A stretch of DNA of 38,067 nucleotides from a virus. Taxonomy: Duplodnaviria > Heunggongvirae > Uroviricota > Caudoviricetes. The DNA lies in IMG/VR virus record IMGVR_UViG_2541047915_000012; one strand, written 5' to 3'. The notes beneath the pieces are model-generated. The model worked only from the letters and a program-made list of their open reading frames with translations. It did not search any database and was not told the DNA's origin. Shown one piece after another: positions 1 to 9,121 of the stretch. The first letter of the stretch is position 1, and each line of letters begins with the position of its first letter. The position numbers and the translations under genes were made by a program.

Positions 1-97
1 AGTCTTGAGTCTTGAGTCTTGAGTCTTGAGTCTTGAGTCTTGAGTCTTGAGTCTTGAGTCTTGAGTCTTGAGTCTTGAGTCTTGAGTCTTGAGTCTT
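1..97 (-). repeat. Tandem heptanucleotide repeat tract (AAGACTC on the minus/coding strand); 13 full copies plus a partial copy cut by the window edge
   Basis: Plus strand reads GAGTCTT x13 (7-97) with 6 nt of a further unit at 1-6; all copies perfect; lies inside the 5' coding end of the minus-strand ORF starting at 102. Confidence 0.97.
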
Positions 98-102
98 AAC
101 AT
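1..102 (-). CDS. neuO: 5' end of a neuO-like phase-variable O-acetyltransferase gene (partial; continues beyond window start)
   Basis: Minus-strand ATG at 102..100 with AGGA upstream; ATG-TTA followed by the repeats translates to MLRLKTQDSRLKTQDS...; repeat unit and position downstream of an endosialidase-like tailspike match the described neuO locus of K1 prophage CUS-3; gene body not in window. Confidence 0.55.
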   Translation of the reverse strand, partial: MLRLKTQDSRLKTQDSRLKTQDSRLKTQDSRLKT

Positions 103-255
103 ATTAGTATCCTACGTTATTTTACCACTAGTTACTTTTCTTGTCATTAAAAAGCATTTAAATTTTTATATTTAATTTCGTTGACGTCAATGTTTTTTGC
201 CAATGTACTTACTTCTTTATGTGATCAGTTCATATTTTTGACGCCAACGAAACAT

Positions 256-3201
256 TTAGTGCTTCCCTTCTATTAAGTCTAACCTAGCTTTTATTCTTTC
301 TATTTCTCTGCGCTGCCATGCTGCCTCGATATAGAATAAGAGATCAGGTCTGACCCCCCATCTAGATCCTGCTGGCGTTATTTCAACGCGCTCAATGATG
401 TCTTCCATTACCATCACTGGATTATCATCCTCATCAACAATGATGCTCCCGTCATTATCAGTCAGCGGCATTTCCCTTTGGCCAGTAATGACGTCATCAT
501 ATACTGCGGGATAATCGTCATAGCAAAGAAAGGCATAGCGGCATGTTGTGCTTTCTTCTTCCATGAGTCCGTGAGAAATAAGAACATCACGAAGTTGCTG
601 CGCGATTACACCATGATGTATCCTCGCCCCTTCTTCCCCCTTTATAGCGACAGCGTTCAGCCATTTATAAGCGATATACCTGACGTCACCCCAGGCATCC
701 AGCAATGTTTCGTCAGGAGAGACCGGCTCTGTCTTTAATGTTCCGTCACTGGTAACCACAGGATTGGAGCCAAGATAAACTATCGAGAACCTGTTTCCCG
801 GACCACCAAGAGCATTTACATTATCAAGATAAGGTTTAACATCTCCGTTCTCAAAAAGATGTTCGAGTGCGTTATATACCGCGCGACGTGGAGTACTGCT
901 TCTGGAACCATGCAACGTTATCATTGCACCATCTGCTGAAGACGTTGTTTCACCGCCGCTAACGATTAATCTCTGAGCGGTAACATCATCAGACGGTACT
1001 TTCTTCGCAATAATGGCGTAATTACCCTCAAGTTTGACTTCCGCGCGAACTTGTCCTGATGTACCTGCATGGACAGTCAGTGACTGGACGGCAACATCAT
1101 CTGTGAAATCAACGGGTACAGGAACCGTCCTCACGCCTGACGTCGACATAAAAGTAGGAAGCGTTCTGTTAGGAGTGGCTCCGTAGACAAAATCCCTTGA
1201 AACAAATTCTTCCTGTTTAATTTTCACCCTGAAACAATACAAATCAGCCGGGTGACCATCGTGAACATAAGGATATTTTCTGTTGTTATCCCCTATGCTC
1301 CATGGGTTTAGAAAGTCTTCCCCACCGAAAATGTAGTACAGCCAGTTGTCTTTGATACAAACTGAACCAACACCAACCGCAGAGTTAACTATTCCGCCCT
1401 GATAAATCTGATCAGTAACATTAACCCACTCTACATTATCCAGACTCCACTCATTGACGTTAACTCTGGTCATAAATGTTCTTGGATAGTTTCCTGCATA
1501 ACGGTTATCAGGTTCTCCTCCTTCCCACTCACCAAATGCGCGCTCACTGCCAAAAATAATCAGCTCATCGCCAACTTTGGCAAAAGGAAGGTTTGAGTGA
1601 TGAACATTATTTGGGAAGCGAAGAGAATTCCATGATGTACCTAAATCAGAGCTTCTGTGCAATGAACTACCGGGTTGAGTACTTAATGTCCCCCTGGTCG
1701 TCAGATACAGAATGCCATCATAATATTTTACACATGGCTCAGATGCATTCGCCTCATATTCTGCAGGTATGCGTCTGCGAACAAAGCTACCAGGAGAACC
1801 GAAAGCATCAGAGAAATAGAGTATCCCAAGCTCGCGTGGACCAATATCACCATTATGGTAGCCAACAGCAAAACTGTTATCGCTAATCGTCGCAAAACTG
1901 TGAATCTCAGTAACAGGAGTGCTTCCGTCAACAAAAGAAGGAATAGTTCCAAGACTGGTTTTTCTCCATGGTGACGAGTGAAATGATGTACCAAAACTCC
2001 AGTATCTACCCTCGTTATTCTGATCCACATCCTGGGTATTTTGCGTCGTAACTGTAAAAGTATTTTTATCAATAACAGTAGTCACCGTCATATTCCCGGT
2101 AACACCTGTAACACCAGAGTTTGAGAAGTTGACAAAATCACCAGCAAATAATCCGTGATCAGTAATGCGAATATAAGCGACTTGCTGATTTGCTGCTTTC
2201 GTTATACCACCATAAACGCGAAGGCTGCGACTCATTGGGCGATCCCACAACTCTGCAACCTGCAGTTTATTTCCGCTCACGGTCCGCGTCTCAATTACAG
2301 CAAAAAGGCGATTTCTGACAACCCCCATACTCATGCAGTGATAGTTAACTGTGGGATAGTTTTCATGTAAATCTGTAAGCCATTCCGGCGTTGTCCAGGT
2401 CTTCCCGTCATCTCCTGAGCGAACCCATGCAACATGGAGGTTATTTACACCATGGCGGTCTCCAGCCATAAAAGGCGCATAGATGACATTGTCATATACA
2501 AACGTTTTATCCTGCGTCCAGGCGTTGTACCACGGTGTATCTGTAATTTTAAATAACTCTCCCTGGATAAAATCTTCAGAAACATAAAAAAGAGGCTGAC
2601 CCGGTATTCTCTCAAATAAAAAACGAGCATTTTTAAATCGACTGACATCTGGAAGAGTTGATACTTTAAAAGTAAGCCCTCGCCCATCTATCTTTTCACC
2701 ACCTGTTGCAACAGAAAGTAATTCTGATAGAGCTGATGTATCATCATGAACACCATCACCAATAGCCCCCCAACCTCTTACATCATAACTGTCTCTCCAT
2801 CTTGCTATCTGAAGTTTTGGGTATTTATTCGCTCCATCTGGGTCTTCTAATTGCTGCCGTAGTTGATCAGGATCATACTTCAGCACATTCTGGAAATAGA
2901 ACTGCTGTACGCCATACGCATCGTACACAGCCATAGAATGGCCTTGCACAGTTACGAACTTGGCAATCCGTCCGTTATATACAGGGTAACCAGCAGCGTT
3001 AATGATGATTGGTTGCGAAACAGGAACGTGAGAGCCGTCTTCGTTCTCTACATAAACCTGAATCCGGTTTTCAGGATTTACCGGGTCAGTGTCAATTTTA
3101 CCGATATAAATTTTGCCATTGGCTACGGCTTTAAAAGAACGCGCCATAGTGAAGAGTTGCGAAGGCATCGATACAATCACATTGGCTGTAATGTCTGTCA
3201 T
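256..3201 (-). CDS. Tailspike protein, probable endo-N-acetylneuraminidase (endosialidase) with P22-type head-binding N-terminus and C-terminal intramolecular chaperone domain
   Basis: 981-aa ORF, GGAG RBS before ATG at 3201; N-terminal ~110 aa resemble P22 gp9 head-binding domain (MTDITANV...[19 protein letters not shown]...VTVQGHSMA); two sialidase Asp-box motifs SGDDGKTW and SSDLGTSW; C-terminal ~150 aa resemble autocleaving chaperone domains of endosialidases and tail fibres. Confidence 0.75.
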
Positions 3202-3301: not shown

Positions 3302-4204
3302 TCAGTAATTATGTACTGAAGGAGGTAATTCTTTATTCTTAAGTCTCATCCATGCGGAAAGATTCGTTGGTCCGTCTGGCTCATTGATATCAACATCTCG
3401 TGTGTGATTGATTAAAACGTCTCTCGCCATATCGATAATACGGGAGAACTCATAACCGCAGTCATGACATCTGCCGGAATAGTTCGATTGAATTTGTTTT
3501 AGCGCCGGATACAGTTCGCGGAATAATGCCTGTGAGCGGTTGGCATAATCCCATAGCCATACAAGGCTGTTTGCTTCTTTTGCAGAAAGCTCGTTGGTTT
3601 TCTTCTCTTGTTTGCCGATGAACTCACCTTCAAGCACTACCCTGTGGATGTACTCTACTGCTTGTGGTATCTGAGATGCATCAAGCTCTTCAATACTTTC
3701 CACATTGAAACGCTGATGAATCATTGCATAAGCTTCTGGGTACATTAGATGCTTTTTGCTGACTAGCATATTTACAGCATCACGAAGCGGAGTCCTGTCA
3801 TCAACAGATGTTTTCTTCCGTGCATTTGCTGCCTCTCCCTTTGTCCAGTAGTCATGCAGCACAGTAAAGCATTCTTCCTGGTACTGAATCAGTTTATCGC
3901 GGATGTCAGCACGAACTTTCTCAGGGTTGATGCTGAACAGCCATCCATTTAACTTCTTCAAAGGAAGGCAGAGTAGCTTACGAAGCTTACCATCAGCGGC
4001 AACCATGTTCATATGAACACAGTTGAATTTGCTAATCTGCTTCATGAGTTTTGTTTGCTGCGTTGACCAGCTCATTCCGAGGTTTTCAACGATTGGCTTC
4101 ATCGCAACATATGCAACTCCGGCAGCCATGGCGGTGATAATTTGCTGACCGTTGAATGGCACGTAAGAGGTGTTCACTGCTTCTAAAATTGCTATACTAT
4201 TCAT
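3302..4204 (-). CDS. ant: Antirepressor Ant (P22 immI type)
   Basis: 300 aa from ATG at 4204 ([21 protein letters not shown]...) with GGAG RBS; matches recalled P22 Ant length and N-terminus; tool ORF has a GTG-initiated 22-codon upstream extension judged spurious. Confidence 0.75.
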
Positions 4205-4436
4205 GTTGGTTTTTCTCCACGGATTTACCGACAACCGAAGCCCTGACTGTTCCAGCAGTTGGGGCTTCACTGTTTTGATTTCTTTGCCGCATCAAGCATC
4301 ACTTCTGAAAACGTGCGCTTGCCACTGAATACTCTTTCTCTTCTCAATTTTTCGTTCGTGCCAAATGATTCGCCATGAACAAAATTTGGTCTTAAAATGG
4401 TAATCGCAATCTCTTTGACTACTGCATCCAAGCGAA

Positions 4437-4589
4437 TCACACCGTTACCCCCTCTCTCTTCAGGCTGTCTATCAGGCGCTTGATAACCTCTGAGTTAAAC
4501 GACCTGCACTCTTCCTTTGCCCTGCTACCGATAGCATCCTTTAACGACTGCGGCATCCTTACCAAAATCTTACTTATTTCTTTCTCCAT
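4437..4589 (-). CDS. arc: Arc-like ribbon-helix-helix repressor
   Basis: 50 aa from ATG at 4589 with GGAGGG RBS; ...RSFNSEVIKRLIDSLKREG resembles P22 Arc (...RSVNSEIYQRVMESFKKEG); tool ORF starts at an upstream TTG. Confidence 0.7.
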   Translation of the reverse strand: MEKEISKILVRMPQSLKDAIGSRAKEECRSFNSEVIKRLIDSLKREGVTV

Positions 4590-4703
4590 GTTACCCTCCA
4601 CGCAAACAACTCTTTTCGAATACAAAAGATAGCAAAGTGAGTATATCTAGTCAAAATTTTTTTGCATACACTTTGCTATCAAATTGAATACCAAAGGTGT
4701 TAT
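4590..4703. promoter_or_regulatory. Divergent Pant/Pmnt control region with operator-like inverted repeats
   Basis: Between divergent arc and mnt; minus-strand -35 TTGACT (complement of 4651-4656); perfect 12-bp inverted repeat GATAGCAAAGTG (4628-4639) / CACTTTGCTATC (4669-4680) flanking it. Confidence 0.5.
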
Positions 4704-4952
4704 ATGGCAAAGGGTGTGTCAATTTCTCCAACTACGGTAAGAATCCCTGAATCTTTACGCGAGGCTCTTGCTGTCAGAGCATCAAAAAATGGTCGCTCTG
4801 TTAACTCCGAGATCGTCATGATTTTGCAAGCCGCGATTGATGAAGATAGGTCGCCAAAGTCAGTTGAGTCATTTGCTCAGCAAGAAGCTGATAAATTCAA
4901 AGAGGCGCTACTTGAGACGCTAAAGACCATGTATGCTAAGGATGAAAAATAA
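4704..4952 (+). CDS. mnt: Mnt-like repressor (Arc/MetJ family)
   Basis: 82 aa from ATG at 4704 (AGGTG RBS); ...ASKNGRSVNSEIVMILQAAI... resembles P22 Mnt (...EANGRSMNSELLQIVQDAL). Confidence 0.7.
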   Translation: MAKGVSISPTTVRIPESLREALAVRASKNGRSVNSEIVMILQAAIDEDRSPKSVESFAQQEADKFKEALLETLKTMYAKDEK

Positions 4953-5488
4953 TGCTGCACACAATTCATTTCTTATGCCCTGTTAACACTGCCACTGTTG
5001 GGCAACTTCAGAACCACTGTCTCACCGCATTATCTCAAGGCGCAACTGAATTAAATATCCATATATCAAGTCAGGGAGGGGAAACTGCTGCTGGCTTTAC
5101 TGCGTATAACTTTCTTAAGTCACTCCCTGTTACCGTTAGAACTCACAACATAAGCAATGTTGAATCCATAGCTAATATCGTTTTCCTGGCTGGCTCAGAA
5201 CGTTTCGCAAACCCATTATCAAGATTCCTGTTACATCCTCTATTATGGTGCTTTGCCTCCCCAGCCGCCGACCATGCCAGATTGAGAGAGTACGGGAAAT
5301 GCCTCGATAACGATCTTGATCGCTTCGTTGAGACGTTCAATATCGACATCGGAACCCATATTAGGTGGGCATCCCTGATAGCAGACTCGACCATTTTGGA
5401 TGCTAACAAGGCTCTTGAGCATGGCATAATTAATTCCATAAAAACTGCAAGGCTGGCATCCAATCAGGCAAACTGGTGGGTTGTTTGA
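4952..5488 (+). CDS. ClpP-like serine peptidase (Clp/crotonase fold), function unknown
   Basis: 178 aa; start overlaps mnt stop (TAATG). Alignable by eye to E. coli ClpP: IHISSQGG vs YINSPGG, ...VESIANIVFLAG vs ...AASMGAFLLTAG, SRFLLHP vs SRVMIHQP, ALEHGIINSI vs AVEYGLVDSI; candidate Ser/His/Asp triad present. Confidence 0.55.
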   Translation: MLHTIHFLCPVNTATVGQLQNHCLTALSQGATELNIHISSQGGETAAGFTAYNFLKSLPVTVRTHNISNVESIANIVFLAGSERFANPLSRFLLHPLLWCFASPAADHARLREYGKCLDNDLDRFVETFNIDIGTHIRWASLIADSTILDANKALEHGIINSIKTARLASNQANWWVV

Positions 5489-5510
5489 TGGGTAAATCAT
5501 GATTACTCCT

Positions 5511-5536
5511 TATAAAAAACCCACCTGACGGTGGGT
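5511..5536 (-). terminator. Rho-independent terminator immediately after the YafO-like gene (bidirectional position between convergent genes)
   Basis: Minus strand: TAA-ACCCACC-GTCA-GGTGGGT-TTTTTAT; perfect 7-bp stem, 4-nt loop, T-run. Confidence 0.75.
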
Positions 5537-5986
5537 TTAGTCAAACATAGTGTTTCTAAAGTCTCTCGCATACCCTGCTAACACTCTCATTCTATTATGA
5601 TTGTTAGCAGACATGTGAGCTACAGGATGAAAAAGAGCAATCAATGAATACCTGTTCTCATCAAAAAGATTTTGTGCATAAACGAGAGCGGTATTGGATG
5701 TTTTATGCCACTGCAACTTTTGCGGTGTGCTGATATCTGTGCCATTTTTTATTGGCTCAAATTTATTTTCACCAATTGCTAAATGAAGGTGCATAAGGCC
5801 TGCATCTTCAATATCAGGAGGTCGATGATAAGAGGTGTCTCTGCCAAAATAGCTGGGCAACGTTCCCGTAGACTTGTAGATGATAAAATCATCTACAAGT
5901 GTTTGTTTTAAATCAGGAAACTCAACAAAAACCGGGGAGAAAAAATAGTCAAAACTATCCTGATTATATTCCACGGTTACTTGCAT
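5537..5986 (-). CDS. YafO-family toxin-like protein (putative ribosome-dependent mRNA interferase)
   Basis: 149 aa, ATG at 5986 with GAGGT RBS overlapping upstream stop. Blocks shared with recalled E. coli YafO: DFIIYKSTGTLPSYFGRD vs DFISYKRDGVLPDIFGRD; MHLHLA vs AHIHLA; LIALFHPVAH...NNHNRM vs LIAILKPEPH...DNNQMH; C-terminal DFR vs AFR. Confidence 0.55.
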   Translation of the reverse strand: MQVTVEYNQDSFDYFFSPVFVEFPDLKQTLVDDFIIYKSTGTLPSYFGRDTSYHRPPDIEDAGLMHLHLAIGENKFEPIKNGTDISTPQKLQWHKTSNTALVYAQNLFDENRYSLIALFHPVAHMSANNHNRMRVLAGYARDFRNTMFD

Positions 5987-5994
5987 GTTTTACC

Positions 5995-6561
5995 TCAGTG
6001 GAAGTTACCAGAGTGAAACACACGAGTCCCGTGCTCAGCAAGCGCACGCAAACCAGCCATATCTACGGAACTATCAAAAACAACCGGAACACATGAGCGT
6101 TGTTTAATAAGACTATTCAGGTTGGTTACGGCAGATCTGGCATCAGCAACAACGATATAGATATCTCTTGCGATCTCTTTAAAATCAGCAGAAGCTTCTT
6201 TGAATACCGATTTCATTGCCCCTTCAAGTCCTCTCAATTGATGCTCTATCAATCGAGACTTTTCTGGTTCAATGATAGACAACACATTGTCTACATTCTC
6301 ATCGGTAGCGTTTGCAAGAACACGATAAGCGTATTTCAGCATTCGAGACAATTCTTTAATCGAAGACACCGCCTCATGAAGCTCATCATTAGCCCGTTCA
6401 CTGCTGAATGAGGATTGATGGTAAGCGTGCTGAACGTTATCAGTAACAACCACCTCACAACTGAACGCAGAAGCTTGCTGTAATAGCAAACCTATTGCGA
6501 CTCCAGCTTTGGCAGCGTTCAAGCTAAACATTTCATCAATCCCATTAGTCTCATTGCTCAT
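5995..6561 (-). CDS. Hypothetical protein, upstream operon partner of the YafO-like gene (not recognisably YafN/RelB/Phd-like)
   Basis: 188 aa from ATG at 6561 with perfect AAGGAGG RBS 5 nt upstream; stop is 8 nt before the YafO-like ATG; tool ORF begins at an upstream TTG. Confidence 0.6.
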   Translation of the reverse strand: MSNETNGIDEMFSLNAAKAGVAIGLLLQQASAFSCEVVVTDNVQHAYHQSSFSSERANDELHEAVSSIKELSRMLKYAYRVLANATDENVDNVLSIIEPEKSRLIEHQLRGLEGAMKSVFKEASADFKEIARDIYIVVADARSAVTNLNSLIKQRSCVPVVFDSSVDMAGLRALAEHGTRVFHSGNFH

Positions 6562-6736
6562 ACAAACCTCCTTCTTATCGGAGATTATCAATAGCTATGC
6601 ATCCATTGAATACACGCTATGCGCAATAAGTTTACGTCACGTGATATCATTATGCAACCACCGTTCTATCACCGACTAACTTTACTCCCACTCCTATACA
6701 TCATCTGGTATCCTGCGCAAAACTAAGGAGGTTGGT

Positions 6737-7087
6737 GTGAATGCTCAGTCTGTCATCATGGTTTTCCTTGGGCTGATTGTCGCAAAACTATATCCAGACT
6801 GGTGGAAAGGGGCATTAGCTACTGTCGCCATCTATTTGCTTTTATCCATCGTTAAGCGATCACTCGCTGAGACCGTAAATCAAGCAAAACGTTTCTCATT
6901 TAAGAGTTTAATAAACTATGTTACTGGGCTTATTTTTTGCCTTTCAATTCTGATCGCTTCGGCTTTTTTGCCCGTATCAATAGCTAATTTTTTTGGCGCA
7001 CCATATGAGGTAGGTTATCTATTCTCTGTTTCCTGTCTTGCCATTGCTCTTCTTTACCTGTGGACGAGATCAAAGAATAAAAATTAG
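6737..7087 (+). CDS. Small integral membrane protein (about 4 predicted TM helices), candidate superinfection-exclusion-type protein
   Basis: 116 aa, GTG start preceded by AAGGAGG; hydrophobic stretches VIMVFLGLIVAKLY, ALATVAIYLLLSIV, LIFCLSILIASAFLPVSIANFF, VGYLFSVSCLAIALLYLW; divergent from the 5995-6561 operon. Confidence 0.55.
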   Translation: MNAQSVIMVFLGLIVAKLYPDWWKGALATVAIYLLLSIVKRSLAETVNQAKRFSFKSLINYVTGLIFCLSILIASAFLPVSIANFFGAPYEVGYLFSVSCLAIALLYLWTRSKNKN

Positions 7088-7104
7088 CCATCCGTGGCTG
7101 CCAG

Positions 7105-9121
7105 TTATTGAGCTTCTTTTTGTGATGCCTGTGCGACTCTGGTGAGCGATTGTGTGACCGTACTGATCGCTCTGTCATATGCTGTGCTACCTTTTGGCGT
7201 ATTTGCCAGACGTAACAAGGCATTTCGTATAACAGGGCTTTCGTATGCCTTCGCAGCTCCTCCTACGACACCAGCAGCAGGAACAACAAACGCAGCCGTT
7301 TTTAGCATCCCCGCTAATACTGCTGCGTTTATGATGCCACCACCAACTAACAATCCATAAAGCTGCTGACCATTTAAGTTTTGAACGTTCGCTTTTGCCG
7401 CGTGTCTTGTATCGTTGAGGTATTTAATAACGCCGTCCAGTTCCTTTCCATGTACGCCTTTAAAGAAAGTTGCTGATTGCTTCCTGTTCCGGTGTAACGC
7501 ATTAATAAACTTTTCAACACTAATATTTCCAGACGGATCAGTCGCCTTATCTACAGCATTCTGAACTATGGCTGCTCGTGCGTTTTGCCTACCATTGTCA
7601 TCCAGAAGCCTGTAAAGCTGAGAACGTTCTGATGGGTTTTGGCTAAAAACGAGTTTTGTTACATCCTCAGGTGTAGCCTTGCCGCTGGCTATTGCCTTTT
7701 GAACGCGCGTTCTTCCCATCATGTCATTGAATCTAGCCCATGAGCGATCAACCCTAGACATATTGGCAGCTTCTTCTGAGCCTAGTTTTTGGGATACTGC
7801 TTTTTTCATATCCGCTGTATATGCCTTGTAGACAATATCGCTGGCTTTCTGGAGCGTGTCTTTATCAACAGTCTCGTTTGAATTCATGAACCGCTTTCGA
7901 AGGTCAGTTCTGTTTTCTCTCGCCAGACGCAGGTCATTGGGTCCGCTGGTGATATCGTCTTTAAATTGCTGCAAGACTTTTACCGCGGCTCTATCCTGAG
8001 ATTTGCCCGGGCGGCTTAACACGGCAATCTGATTGTCGATAGCTTTTACCGTGTTTGAGAGATCGACAGGGGTATCCCCCATAGCGTCAATTATGCGGTT
8101 ATATCGCTTTCCTGCTGCCTCAATGAATTTTTGTTGCCCTTTAGTCGCAGATTCATAAAGCTGTTTATCAGAAATGCCACCCAGACCATCGCTAAATGTT
8201 CTGACTAAATTTTCTCGTGCTTGTTGTTGATTCAGCCGATTCTTACCGGTTCCAAAAAAAAGGAACTCTTTCGCCTAATGTCTGAGCCTGACTCTGCATA
8301 AAGGTTTTATCTTTCAGCGTGTCACTGGTCATTAACGGCAGGTTTCTTTCCGACGCAAAATCGACAGCAGCCTTTGCTTCCGGTGACATCTCACCGCGAA
8401 CAGCCCTGGAAACCGCACTAACTGTATTTTCCAGCCCCTTGCCAACACCACCAATGCCAGCAGAAATTACCGTTTGTGCAGGATCAATATCTTCTCCGCC
8501 AGCAAGGCTGGTGCCACCCTGTAGTGCTAAATCTGTAGCAGCTGATTTCCCTATGGCACCAAGCACCGTTCCAGCCCTGCCCGCTGGTGTGAACGCTAAC
8601 GCATTAGCAAGAAACGAAGTCAGGTCTTGCGGTGATAAACCTGGCTTGTTCAGGGCATAATCACCGGATGGCAGGGAAACGATAGTGTTACCCTTCTCAT
8701 CCTGCCTTAATTTCGCCCCCATACTCTGAAGAATCTTTTCCTGAGACGCGTCGGAGCCGAAAAGTTGAGACCATCCAGCCTTCAGGGCATCCATGCTTAG
8801 TGAGTTCAACTCAGGGGCAGCCCCAACATTTTGCAGTCTCTCCATTTCTGGTGTCATTCGGCTTTCACCGGTAACGGCATCGCGCATTGCAGCACCTAAA
8901 ACAGCCCCTTGCTCAGCAGAGCGATCTAGTCCTTCCTTCTGCTGAGTGGCAAGCTGTGCATATCCTGATGCAAGTGAGTTGTCTGCTGGCGATTGCTGAA
9001 CACCTTGTTGTGTTGGCGCTGACTGACCAGCAAAATACTCATCAATGGCGGACCCAATATCTTCCGTGCTCGTACCATCAGGAAAGGTAAATGTCTTACC
9101 ATTTGCAGTTACTTTCATCAT
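7105..9121 (-). pseudogene. Ejection protein gp16 homolog with reading frame interrupted at an A8/T8 homopolymer
   Basis: Two same-strand ORFs (8243..9121, 292 aa; 7105..8082, 325 aa) where P22 has one gene 16; the downstream ORF frame stays open upstream through the homopolymer at 8254-8261, so a 1-nt change would fuse them (~670 aa). Confidence 0.5.

Follow-up and report, generated by a model that had tools for sequence, protein, structure and literature searches.

Do four adjacent genes of a P22-like prophage constitute one system of phage defence, or are they separate pieces of cargo that share a location? The question is raised by positions 4952 to 7087 of the IMG/VR record IMGVR_UViG_2541047915_000012, a sequence of 38,067 nucleotides (nt) from a virus of the Caudoviricetes, the whole of which is referred to here as the window. 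Between mnt, the repressor gene of the immI region, and gene 16, which codes for the DNA ejection protein, the window encodes a ClpP-like peptidase, a toxin of the YafO family, a partner protein of this toxin with 188 amino acids (aa), and a membrane protein of 116 aa. In the first-pass annotation, these genes were regarded as one candidate defence or exclusion module. The comparisons described here lead, with good but not full confidence, to a different reading: the genes represent three cargo units, each exchangeable on its own, at a site of known variability in a P22-like prophage of Escherichia coli K1, and not one four-gene defence system.

Distribution of the four genes

The identities of the genes, their architecture, and their independent distribution are established here. 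In a survey of 5,426 complete E. coli genomes, with a coverage of at least 80%, the ClpP-like gene was detected in 126 genomes, the toxin pair in 55, and the membrane gene in 227, and all four genes were present together in 51. The stretch consisting of mnt and the ClpP-like gene (4600-5538) was found without the toxin pair in many genomes and phages. An identical toxin pair is located directly 3' of mnt in two P22-like prophages (L016 and L017), from which the ClpP-like gene and the 116-aa gene are absent, and the tailspikes and gene 16 alleles of these prophages differ from those of the window. A pair with 54% identity lies behind mnt, without the ClpP-like or the 116-aa gene, in a metagenomic P22-like contig (L118), and the pair also exists by itself in a prophage remnant (L018). 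Among 80 IMG/VR contigs with a relative of the ClpP-like gene, the toxin or its partner was found within 3 kb of that relative in none, and a distant homologue of the membrane protein was found in just one. The counts of 126, 55, and 227 against 51 together, the existence of the pair alone elsewhere, and the lack of co-occurrence in the 80 contigs all speak against the proposal of a single module.

The four genes are divided among three transcription units: the mnt operon, a minus-strand bicistron, and the plus-strand membrane gene. Additionally, IS3 was found in this region in three strains, FY26, E10, and NCTC11151. In FY26 (L116, at approximately window 4953-4977), an IS3-family element cuts the 5' end of the ClpP-like gene according to the annotation, and the pair and the membrane gene are intact. 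Two-piece matches with an IS3 transposase, like that of FY26, were seen in E10 and NCTC11151; the exact insertion sites were established for FY26 only. Since FY26 keeps the pair intact despite the disrupted ClpP-like gene, the ClpP-like protein is dispensable for restraining the toxin.

An integrated system of defence or exclusion, in which protease, toxin, partner, and membrane protein cooperate as first proposed, is therefore very improbable. The four genes are indeed adjacent and approximately 100% identical in the 51 genomes, and no known system accounts for them. However, the three transcription units alternate in strand, each unit also occurs without the others, the 51 co-occurrences resemble one clonal prophage lineage, and the pair was retained in FY26 after the IS3 disruption of the ClpP-like gene. 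It can be seen that the four-gene set is a juxtaposition present in one prophage lineage. In a scan with the PADLOC v2 defence models, no meaningful match was obtained for any of the four proteins, three of which had no match at all. In this respect the first impression that the combination corresponds to no named system was correct, and no unit is a described defence system. A weak similarity of the partner to the tail of ZorA in the same scan (E 0.004) was discarded as coiled-coil similarity. A role of the locus in defence, exclusion, or addiction is plausible.

The variable slot between mnt and gene 16

The window is a P22-like prophage, and positions 4600-7200 are 100% identical to the chromosomes of E. 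coli S88, APEC O1, and other K1/ST95 strains. The gene order given by RefSeq for S88 is tailspike, ant, a small open reading frame (ORF), arc, mnt, an ATP-dependent Clp protease proteolytic subunit, a YafO family toxin, two hypothetical genes, and P22-gp16, and all four accessory ORFs carry annotation there. The mnt gene (4704..4952, plus strand) encodes a ribbon-helix-helix immI repressor (Pfam Arc, E 1.4e-10), annotated in RefSeq as an Arc family DNA-binding protein, and represents the first gene of an operon with the ClpP-like gene. Its product is 36% identical to P22 Mnt over the full length (E 7e-14). A full-length match to the sar RNA (Rfam RF00262, 83.9 bits) was detected at 4205-4271 on the plus strand; it covers the end of a 57-aa ORF at 4267-4440 as well as the 5' end of the long ant ORF at 3302-4270, both ORFs being on the minus strand. 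Together, the sar RNA match and the identity to P22 Mnt indicate that the immI region is of the P22 type. A perfect 12-nt inverted repeat, with arms at 4628-4639 and 4669-4680, is present in the divergent arc/mnt promoter region; this repeat (4628-4680) is probably an operator.

In P22, the corresponding order is gene 16 (plus strand), sieA (minus strand, with its own promoter), the mnt terminator, orf59a (minus strand), and mnt (minus strand). The four ORFs were found where the first-pass annotation had placed them, and this gene order agrees with its assignment of the four genes to the sieA position of P22. That they have no structural role can also be maintained, as they are non-structural cargo in the P22 sieA/orf59a position. 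Among 66 sequenced P22-like phages, homologues of sieA were reported in only 22, each of which infects Salmonella (PMC10883804).

The flanking structural gene, gene 16 (7105..9121, minus strand), is frameshifted in the window. In S88, it is a single gene of 2,013 nt encoding a P22-gp16 family protein of 670 aa. Compared with S88, the A-run at 8247-8254 is longer by one A in the window, which splits the gene into two ORFs, 8243-9121 and 7105-8082. Either the prophage is unable to make gp16, or the extra A is a homopolymer sequencing error.

The ClpP-like peptidase of the mnt operon

The first unit is the gene of an N-truncated, ClpP-like peptidase of the PpClpP1 type (4952..5488, plus strand; 178 aa). 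Its ATG overlaps the mnt stop codon (TAATG), and the gene is translationally coupled to mnt. The protein matches the Pfam family CLP_protease PF00574 from profile position 37 onwards, above the gathering cut-off (E 2.2e-11, 44.4 bits against 20.2), which bears out its first description as a ClpP-like peptidase. The closest solved relative is PDB 9UXT (E 1.6e-35), with residues 3-175 aligned to 4-179. The canonical ClpP equivalogs of NCBIfam reached only 19-49 bits against cut-offs of 120-475, and the N-terminal axial region is missing. In an alignment of 38 family members, Ser72 and His95 are invariant and the third triad position varies. A Ser-His-Asp triad is absent; at the third position, the window protein has Ser146, most of the family has Ala, and PpClpP1 has Pro.

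The structure 9UXT, obtained by cryo-electron microscopy in 2026, is that of PpClpP1 from Pseudomonas plecoglossicida (PMC12900304), the only family member that has been studied. According to the same study, PpClpP1 is N-terminally truncated, has a Ser-His-Pro triad, and forms a tetradecamer with a pore of 42.7 A. Its peptidase activity is low, requiring Ser and His, with Pro being dispensable. PpClpP1 does not bind ClpX, and with canonical ClpP it forms mixed rings in which ClpXP activity is raised (PMC12900304). The protein is treated there as a chromosomal paralogue and drug target, and phages are never mentioned. A search of IMG/VR with PpClpP1 for a prophage origin yielded just relatives with 42-50% identity.

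In 36 of the 80 viral contigs, the ClpP-like gene lies behind mnt at the junction seen in the window, with 36-100% identity of the mnt alleles, and in 43 contigs without mnt it is usually opposed to blocks of opposite-strand genes. Most relatives are lone prophage genes, antiparallel to their neighbours. In prophages of Klebsiella and E. coli, relatives have a place between lysis genes and terminase; in Chromobacterium they are close to genes for tail fibres and baseplate, and in Proteus they lie between N and erf/ssb. These lone, antiparallel, or post-mnt contexts suggest a self-sufficient gene that is placed for expression in the lysogen. In Enterobacterales, the PpClpP1 family consists mostly of prophage cargo, an association that has seemingly gone unnoticed so far, and the prophage context may explain the purpose of second ClpPs such as PpClpP1. 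In one ClpP-like clade (about 52% identity), a co-oriented ORF of 182 aa is located 79 nt upstream (L021, 3275-3823; L089-L095). This ORF matches phrog_5483 and has no match in Pfam or PADLOC, and in these prophages it is a possible partner of the ClpP-like protein. A cargo gene with a TIR domain is also found close to the ClpP-like gene in L021.

It could be asked whether the gene is a displaced or degenerate head-maturation protease instead of cargo expressed in the lysogen. The best PHROG match is phrog_94, head maturation protease (E 7e-21), the NCBIfam family Clp_rel_HeadMat is matched (E 5e-13), and the phiv205-1 gene is annotated in this way. Nevertheless, such an origin is hardly credible. 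The gene is no part of the head cluster; it belongs to the mnt operon, lies between immI and gene 16, and is on the strand opposite to the late genes, and the NCBIfam scores are far under the cut-offs (for example, 49 against 120). The invariance of Ser72 and His95 in 38 members from many genera indicates selection and not decay, and the nearest studied relative is a chromosomal ClpP paralogue that forms 14-mers. Moreover, P22-type capsids mature, to our knowledge, without a prohead protease.

For the peptidase, as for the other three genes, the biochemical activities and phenotypes are inferred. By homology to PpClpP1, the protein would most likely assemble into wide-pore tetradecamers without a ClpX docking of their own. 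On the same grounds, it could co-assemble with the host ClpP and alter the ClpXP output.

The YafO-family toxin and its helical partner

The second unit is the minus-strand bicistron, in which the partner precedes the toxin. The toxin gene (5537..5986, minus strand) encodes a putative ribosome-dependent mRNA endonuclease of 149 aa. The protein matches the Pfam family YafO_toxin PF13957 with an E value of 3.4e-22 and 78.9 bits (cut-off 25), covering positions 3-101 of the 101-position profile, and also matches phrog_1651 (E 1e-47). Against the YafO equivalog NF007377 of NCBIfam, it reached 79 bits, which is under the cut-off of 153. In six sequences that include YafO of E. coli K-12, the invariant residues are D33, F34, Y37, P44, F47-G48-R49-D50, Y53, H66, H68, Q92, Y103, E110, P121, and H124; the FGRD and HxH motifs are those of K-12 YafO. 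The earlier identification of a YafO-like toxin is thus upheld by the PF13957 match and by the residues common to K-12 YafO. A search for sequence homologues of the toxin family in the PDB found none. The toxin coding sequence contains a perfect inverted repeat (5872-5900), whose 13-bp arms enclose a 3-nt loop and which was scored in the scan as terminator-like on the plus (antisense) strand.

The partner gene (5995..6561, minus strand) encodes an all-helical protein of 188 aa, a putative antitoxin of a new type. It starts at the ATG at 6561, behind AAGGAGG, and its stop codon is separated from the toxin start by 8 nt with GAGG in the spacer. The protein has no Pfam match and matches phrog_8416 over its full length (E 2.6e-96). 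A model made with AlphaFold2 (AF2) has seven helices and a predicted local distance difference test score (pLDDT) of 70; when it was compared with the PDB by Foldseek, generic helical bundles alone were retrieved, none at an E value of 0.001 or less. No match to the partner was obtained in a profile search of PDB sequences either. The C-terminal tail FHSGNFH is invariant and has a low pLDDT in the model, which is suggestive of a part that may bind and neutralise the toxin. The partner family is rare, comprising 24 representative clusters among 1.84 billion proteins.

The order partner-toxin, with a spacer of 3-8 nt, was observed in the window and is shared by the eleven other contexts that were examined. 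These contexts include phage HK639, between the tape-measure and minor tail genes; the Pseudomonas phage D14L, where the integrase is close by; a prophage remnant, at whose end the pair adjoins a truncated gene for tRNA-dihydrouridine synthase; an IMG/VR P22-like contig; siphovirus contigs; and a distant member (E 4e-9) that adjoins an Ant/Arc/Mnt module. It can be seen that the layout generic to toxin-antitoxin (TA) systems of type II is present, with a tightly coupled upstream gene in the antitoxin position and a conserved pair. The pair is found repeatedly beside Mnt/Arc/Ant (immI-like) modules (L110, L111, L117, L118, L016, L017, and L026), and the siphovirus contigs with the pair have immI among the tail genes. 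A joint transfer of immI and the pair, or a common preferred insertion site, is hinted at by these neighbourhoods.

In the phages Emek and phiv205-1, the same slot, on the same strand and with the same 42-bp terminator, is occupied by a Panacea antitoxin gene (PF13274, E 8e-25) followed by a 160-aa gene. As a Panacea cassette occupies the same slot, the slot is regarded as an exchange site of TA cassettes and the 188-aa protein as the probable antitoxin. If so, the partner would be made first and would bind and neutralise the YafO-family, mRNA-cleaving toxin produced from the coupled downstream gene. If the partner were lost or sequestered, the toxin would be freed and translation would stop. 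The result would be either an aborted phage infection or the death of cells from which the prophage has been lost.

The latter two outcomes correspond to different interpretations of the pair. That it is a module of prophage addiction or stabilisation, or selfish cargo, with no anti-phage role is a serious possibility, though less likely than not. The architecture is that of a classic type II TA system, no PADLOC model was matched, and the literature searched ties no YafO toxin to phage defence; more broadly, this search brought up no publication that connects YafO toxins or a truncated ClpP with phage defence. Two observations point the other way, both suggestive only. The pair occupies typical accessory-cargo positions in many unrelated phages, and it alternates with Panacea cassettes, whose TA networks are linked to phage defence in the title of PMC10440598.

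In type II systems, the antitoxin is as a rule cleared by Lon or Clp proteases, a point in favour of an opportunistic coupling within this lineage. Here, the ClpP-like protease, alone or mixed with the host ClpP, would degrade the partner and so set the trigger threshold of the toxin, and the units would also work alone. PpClpP1 boosts ClpXP in mixed rings (PMC12900304), and the ClpP-like and toxin units have one terminator in common. However, a ClpP-like neighbour of the pair is absent from all the other contexts examined, members of the ClpP-like family almost always occur without a TA pair, and the strain with the IS-disrupted ClpP-like gene retains the pair. Such a coupling is accordingly considered unlikely, and the independence of the ClpP-like gene and the toxin pair is preferred.

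The 116-aa membrane protein

The third unit is a single gene (6737..7087, plus strand) in the sieA slot, convergent with gene 16, which encodes a four-segment membrane protein of 116 aa. It starts with the GTG at 6737, five nt past AAGGAGG. Hydrophobic segments were seen at residues 1-21, 24-44, 57-87, and 91-110, in agreement with the four transmembrane segments first described. No family match was obtained in Pfam, PADLOC, PHROG, or NCBIfam, and a tblastn search of 50,697 phage records gave no match. An identity with SieA was ruled out by comparison with P22-type SieA (BLASTP E 0.29). The gene lies between genes 16 and 9, its position and orientation relative to gene 16 are those of P22 sieA, and in other phages unrelated small proteins are encoded in the same slot, behind the same 42-bp initiation region. 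From position alone, the 116-aa inner-membrane protein is a candidate blocker of DNA entry by related phages.

A homologue of the membrane gene was found in E. coli O111:H8 05-3004 (L019, 3484-3873), with approximately 92% nucleotide identity and 88% protein identity. It adjoins ykgL/ykgM/ykgO and genes for a PerC-family and a helix-turn-helix regulator, and it is outside any P22-like prophage. Therefore, the membrane gene moves independently of the phage context.

Control regions and cassette boundaries

A bidirectional hairpin terminator (5511..5538) was identified by folding; it serves the mnt operon on the plus strand and the toxin operon on the minus strand, and it is a conserved cassette boundary. 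On the minus strand, the hairpin at 5517-5538 (-14.9 kcal/mol) is followed by U6, and the plus-strand fold has -15.1 kcal/mol. The strong terminator ascribed earlier to the toxin operon is thus real. The consensus scan overlooked it, as some of the T-run is taken up by the stem. In the Salmonella phage Emek, an identical copy of the 42 bp at 5497-5538 carries the annotation of a terminator.

The divergent control region of the toxin operon and the membrane gene (6562..6736) includes the other conserved boundary, 6700-6741. The two stretches 5497-5538 and 6700-6741 flank the toxin cassette and recur at 95-100% identity with unrelated genes between or after them. The second includes the ribosome-binding site of the membrane gene and recurs ahead of unrelated genes in other genomes. 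The two 42-bp stretches therefore look like conserved cassette boundaries. By eye, only a CATAAT -10 element with a poor -35 element could be found in 6562-6736, and the sites of the promoter and terminator consensus scan were no more numerous than in shuffled sequence. Downstream of CATAAT there is a palindrome, TCACGTGA, which is not conserved in L026 or other loci and is lineage-specific. In Rfam, nothing was matched in the leader of the toxin operon, the sar RNA of the immI region being the sole match. The initiation regions of the partner (6558-6573) and the membrane gene (6725-6740) are inverted copies of each other, AAGGAGGTTTGTATGA and AAGGAGGTTGGTGTGA, with 88% complementarity.

Weight of the evidence

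Several results weigh against the interpretation as three cargo units with the roles described. The 51 four-gene genomes are nearly identical in the region, so a functional interplay specific to this lineage is possible. The presence of the membrane gene outside prophages weakens the case for a phage-specific exclusion role. For the partner, an antitoxin role is deduced from gene order and co-conservation alone, and no recognisable DNA-binding or known antitoxin domain was found with Pfam, the PDB profile search, or Foldseek. The AF2 model of the toxin, built from 15 sequences, has a pLDDT of 53 and is unusable for a fold comparison. No sigma-70 promoter of the toxin operon was found in 6562-6736 by the consensus scan, and on this point the earlier description of the operon as a self-contained transcription unit was not confirmed. 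The aligned upstream regions of five divergent pairs also contain no conserved promoter or operator.

Despite these points, three exchangeable units remain the interpretation that is preferred. All three units are placed for expression by the prophage. With three small units that can be tested separately in place of a single exotic four-gene system, the choice of clones changes. The junction between mnt and gene 16 represents an exchange site, with a shared terminator and initiation region, in which TA cassettes and membrane genes are swapped, and it is useful for the mining of new cargo. Additionally, a new pairing is described, consisting of a phage-carried YafO-family toxin and a rare partner family without a known domain.

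A bolder proposal, which is speculative and rather improbable, can be drawn by analogy. The truncated ClpP fold might be a widespread single-gene prophage factor that is made in the lysogen, joins the host ClpP in mixed assemblies in the manner of PpClpP1, and in this way rewires host Clp proteolysis against superinfection or for the stability of lysogeny, and the 188-aa helical protein might be a new type of antitoxin that is also a phage sensor for phage-borne YafO toxins. If this were true, it would represent an undescribed principle of defence or host takeover and would provide a function for the structurally solved PpClpP1 family.

Comparison with known systems

Compared to PpClpP1, the ClpP-like protein of the window shows homology over the full length and a similar size (178 versus 183 aa). 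Both proteins lack the N-terminal axial region, have conserved Ser and His residues, and have a third triad position other than Asp. They differ in that Pro151 of PpClpP1 is replaced by Ser in the window protein, and the window gene belongs to a prophage, as part of the mnt operon. The ClpP-related proteases of phage head maturation (phrog_94, NF045542) belong to the same fold family, but the window protein has no scaffold or capsid domain.

The pair is similar to YafN-YafO of E. coli (dinB-yafNOP) in having a toxin of the same Pfam family and a tightly coupled upstream gene. In contrast to K-12 YafN, which has 97 aa and is classed as Phd-type (PMC3141249), the partner in the window is a helical protein of 188 aa with no Pfam match, and the window toxin has an N-terminal extension and an internal insertion. 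In a survey of 2011, YafO toxins were found with Phd-type or unclassified antitoxins and none were on phages or plasmids (PMC3141249); the pair of the window differs from these in being phage-carried. The Panacea (PanA/SocA) cassettes resemble the pair in the succession of an antitoxin of about 150 aa and a gene of about 160 aa, in the same slot, on the same strand, and with the same terminator. The partner of the window has no Panacea domain, however, and the toxins are unrelated.

The sieA/orf59a region of P22 shares with the window one gene that is co-transcribed behind mnt up to the terminator and a membrane-protein gene with its own start that is convergent with gene 16. In the window, the orf59a slot is filled by the ClpP-like gene, second in the mnt operon, and the sieA slot is filled by the 116-aa membrane gene. 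Between these two slots, the window differs from P22 by the additional minus-strand bicistron.

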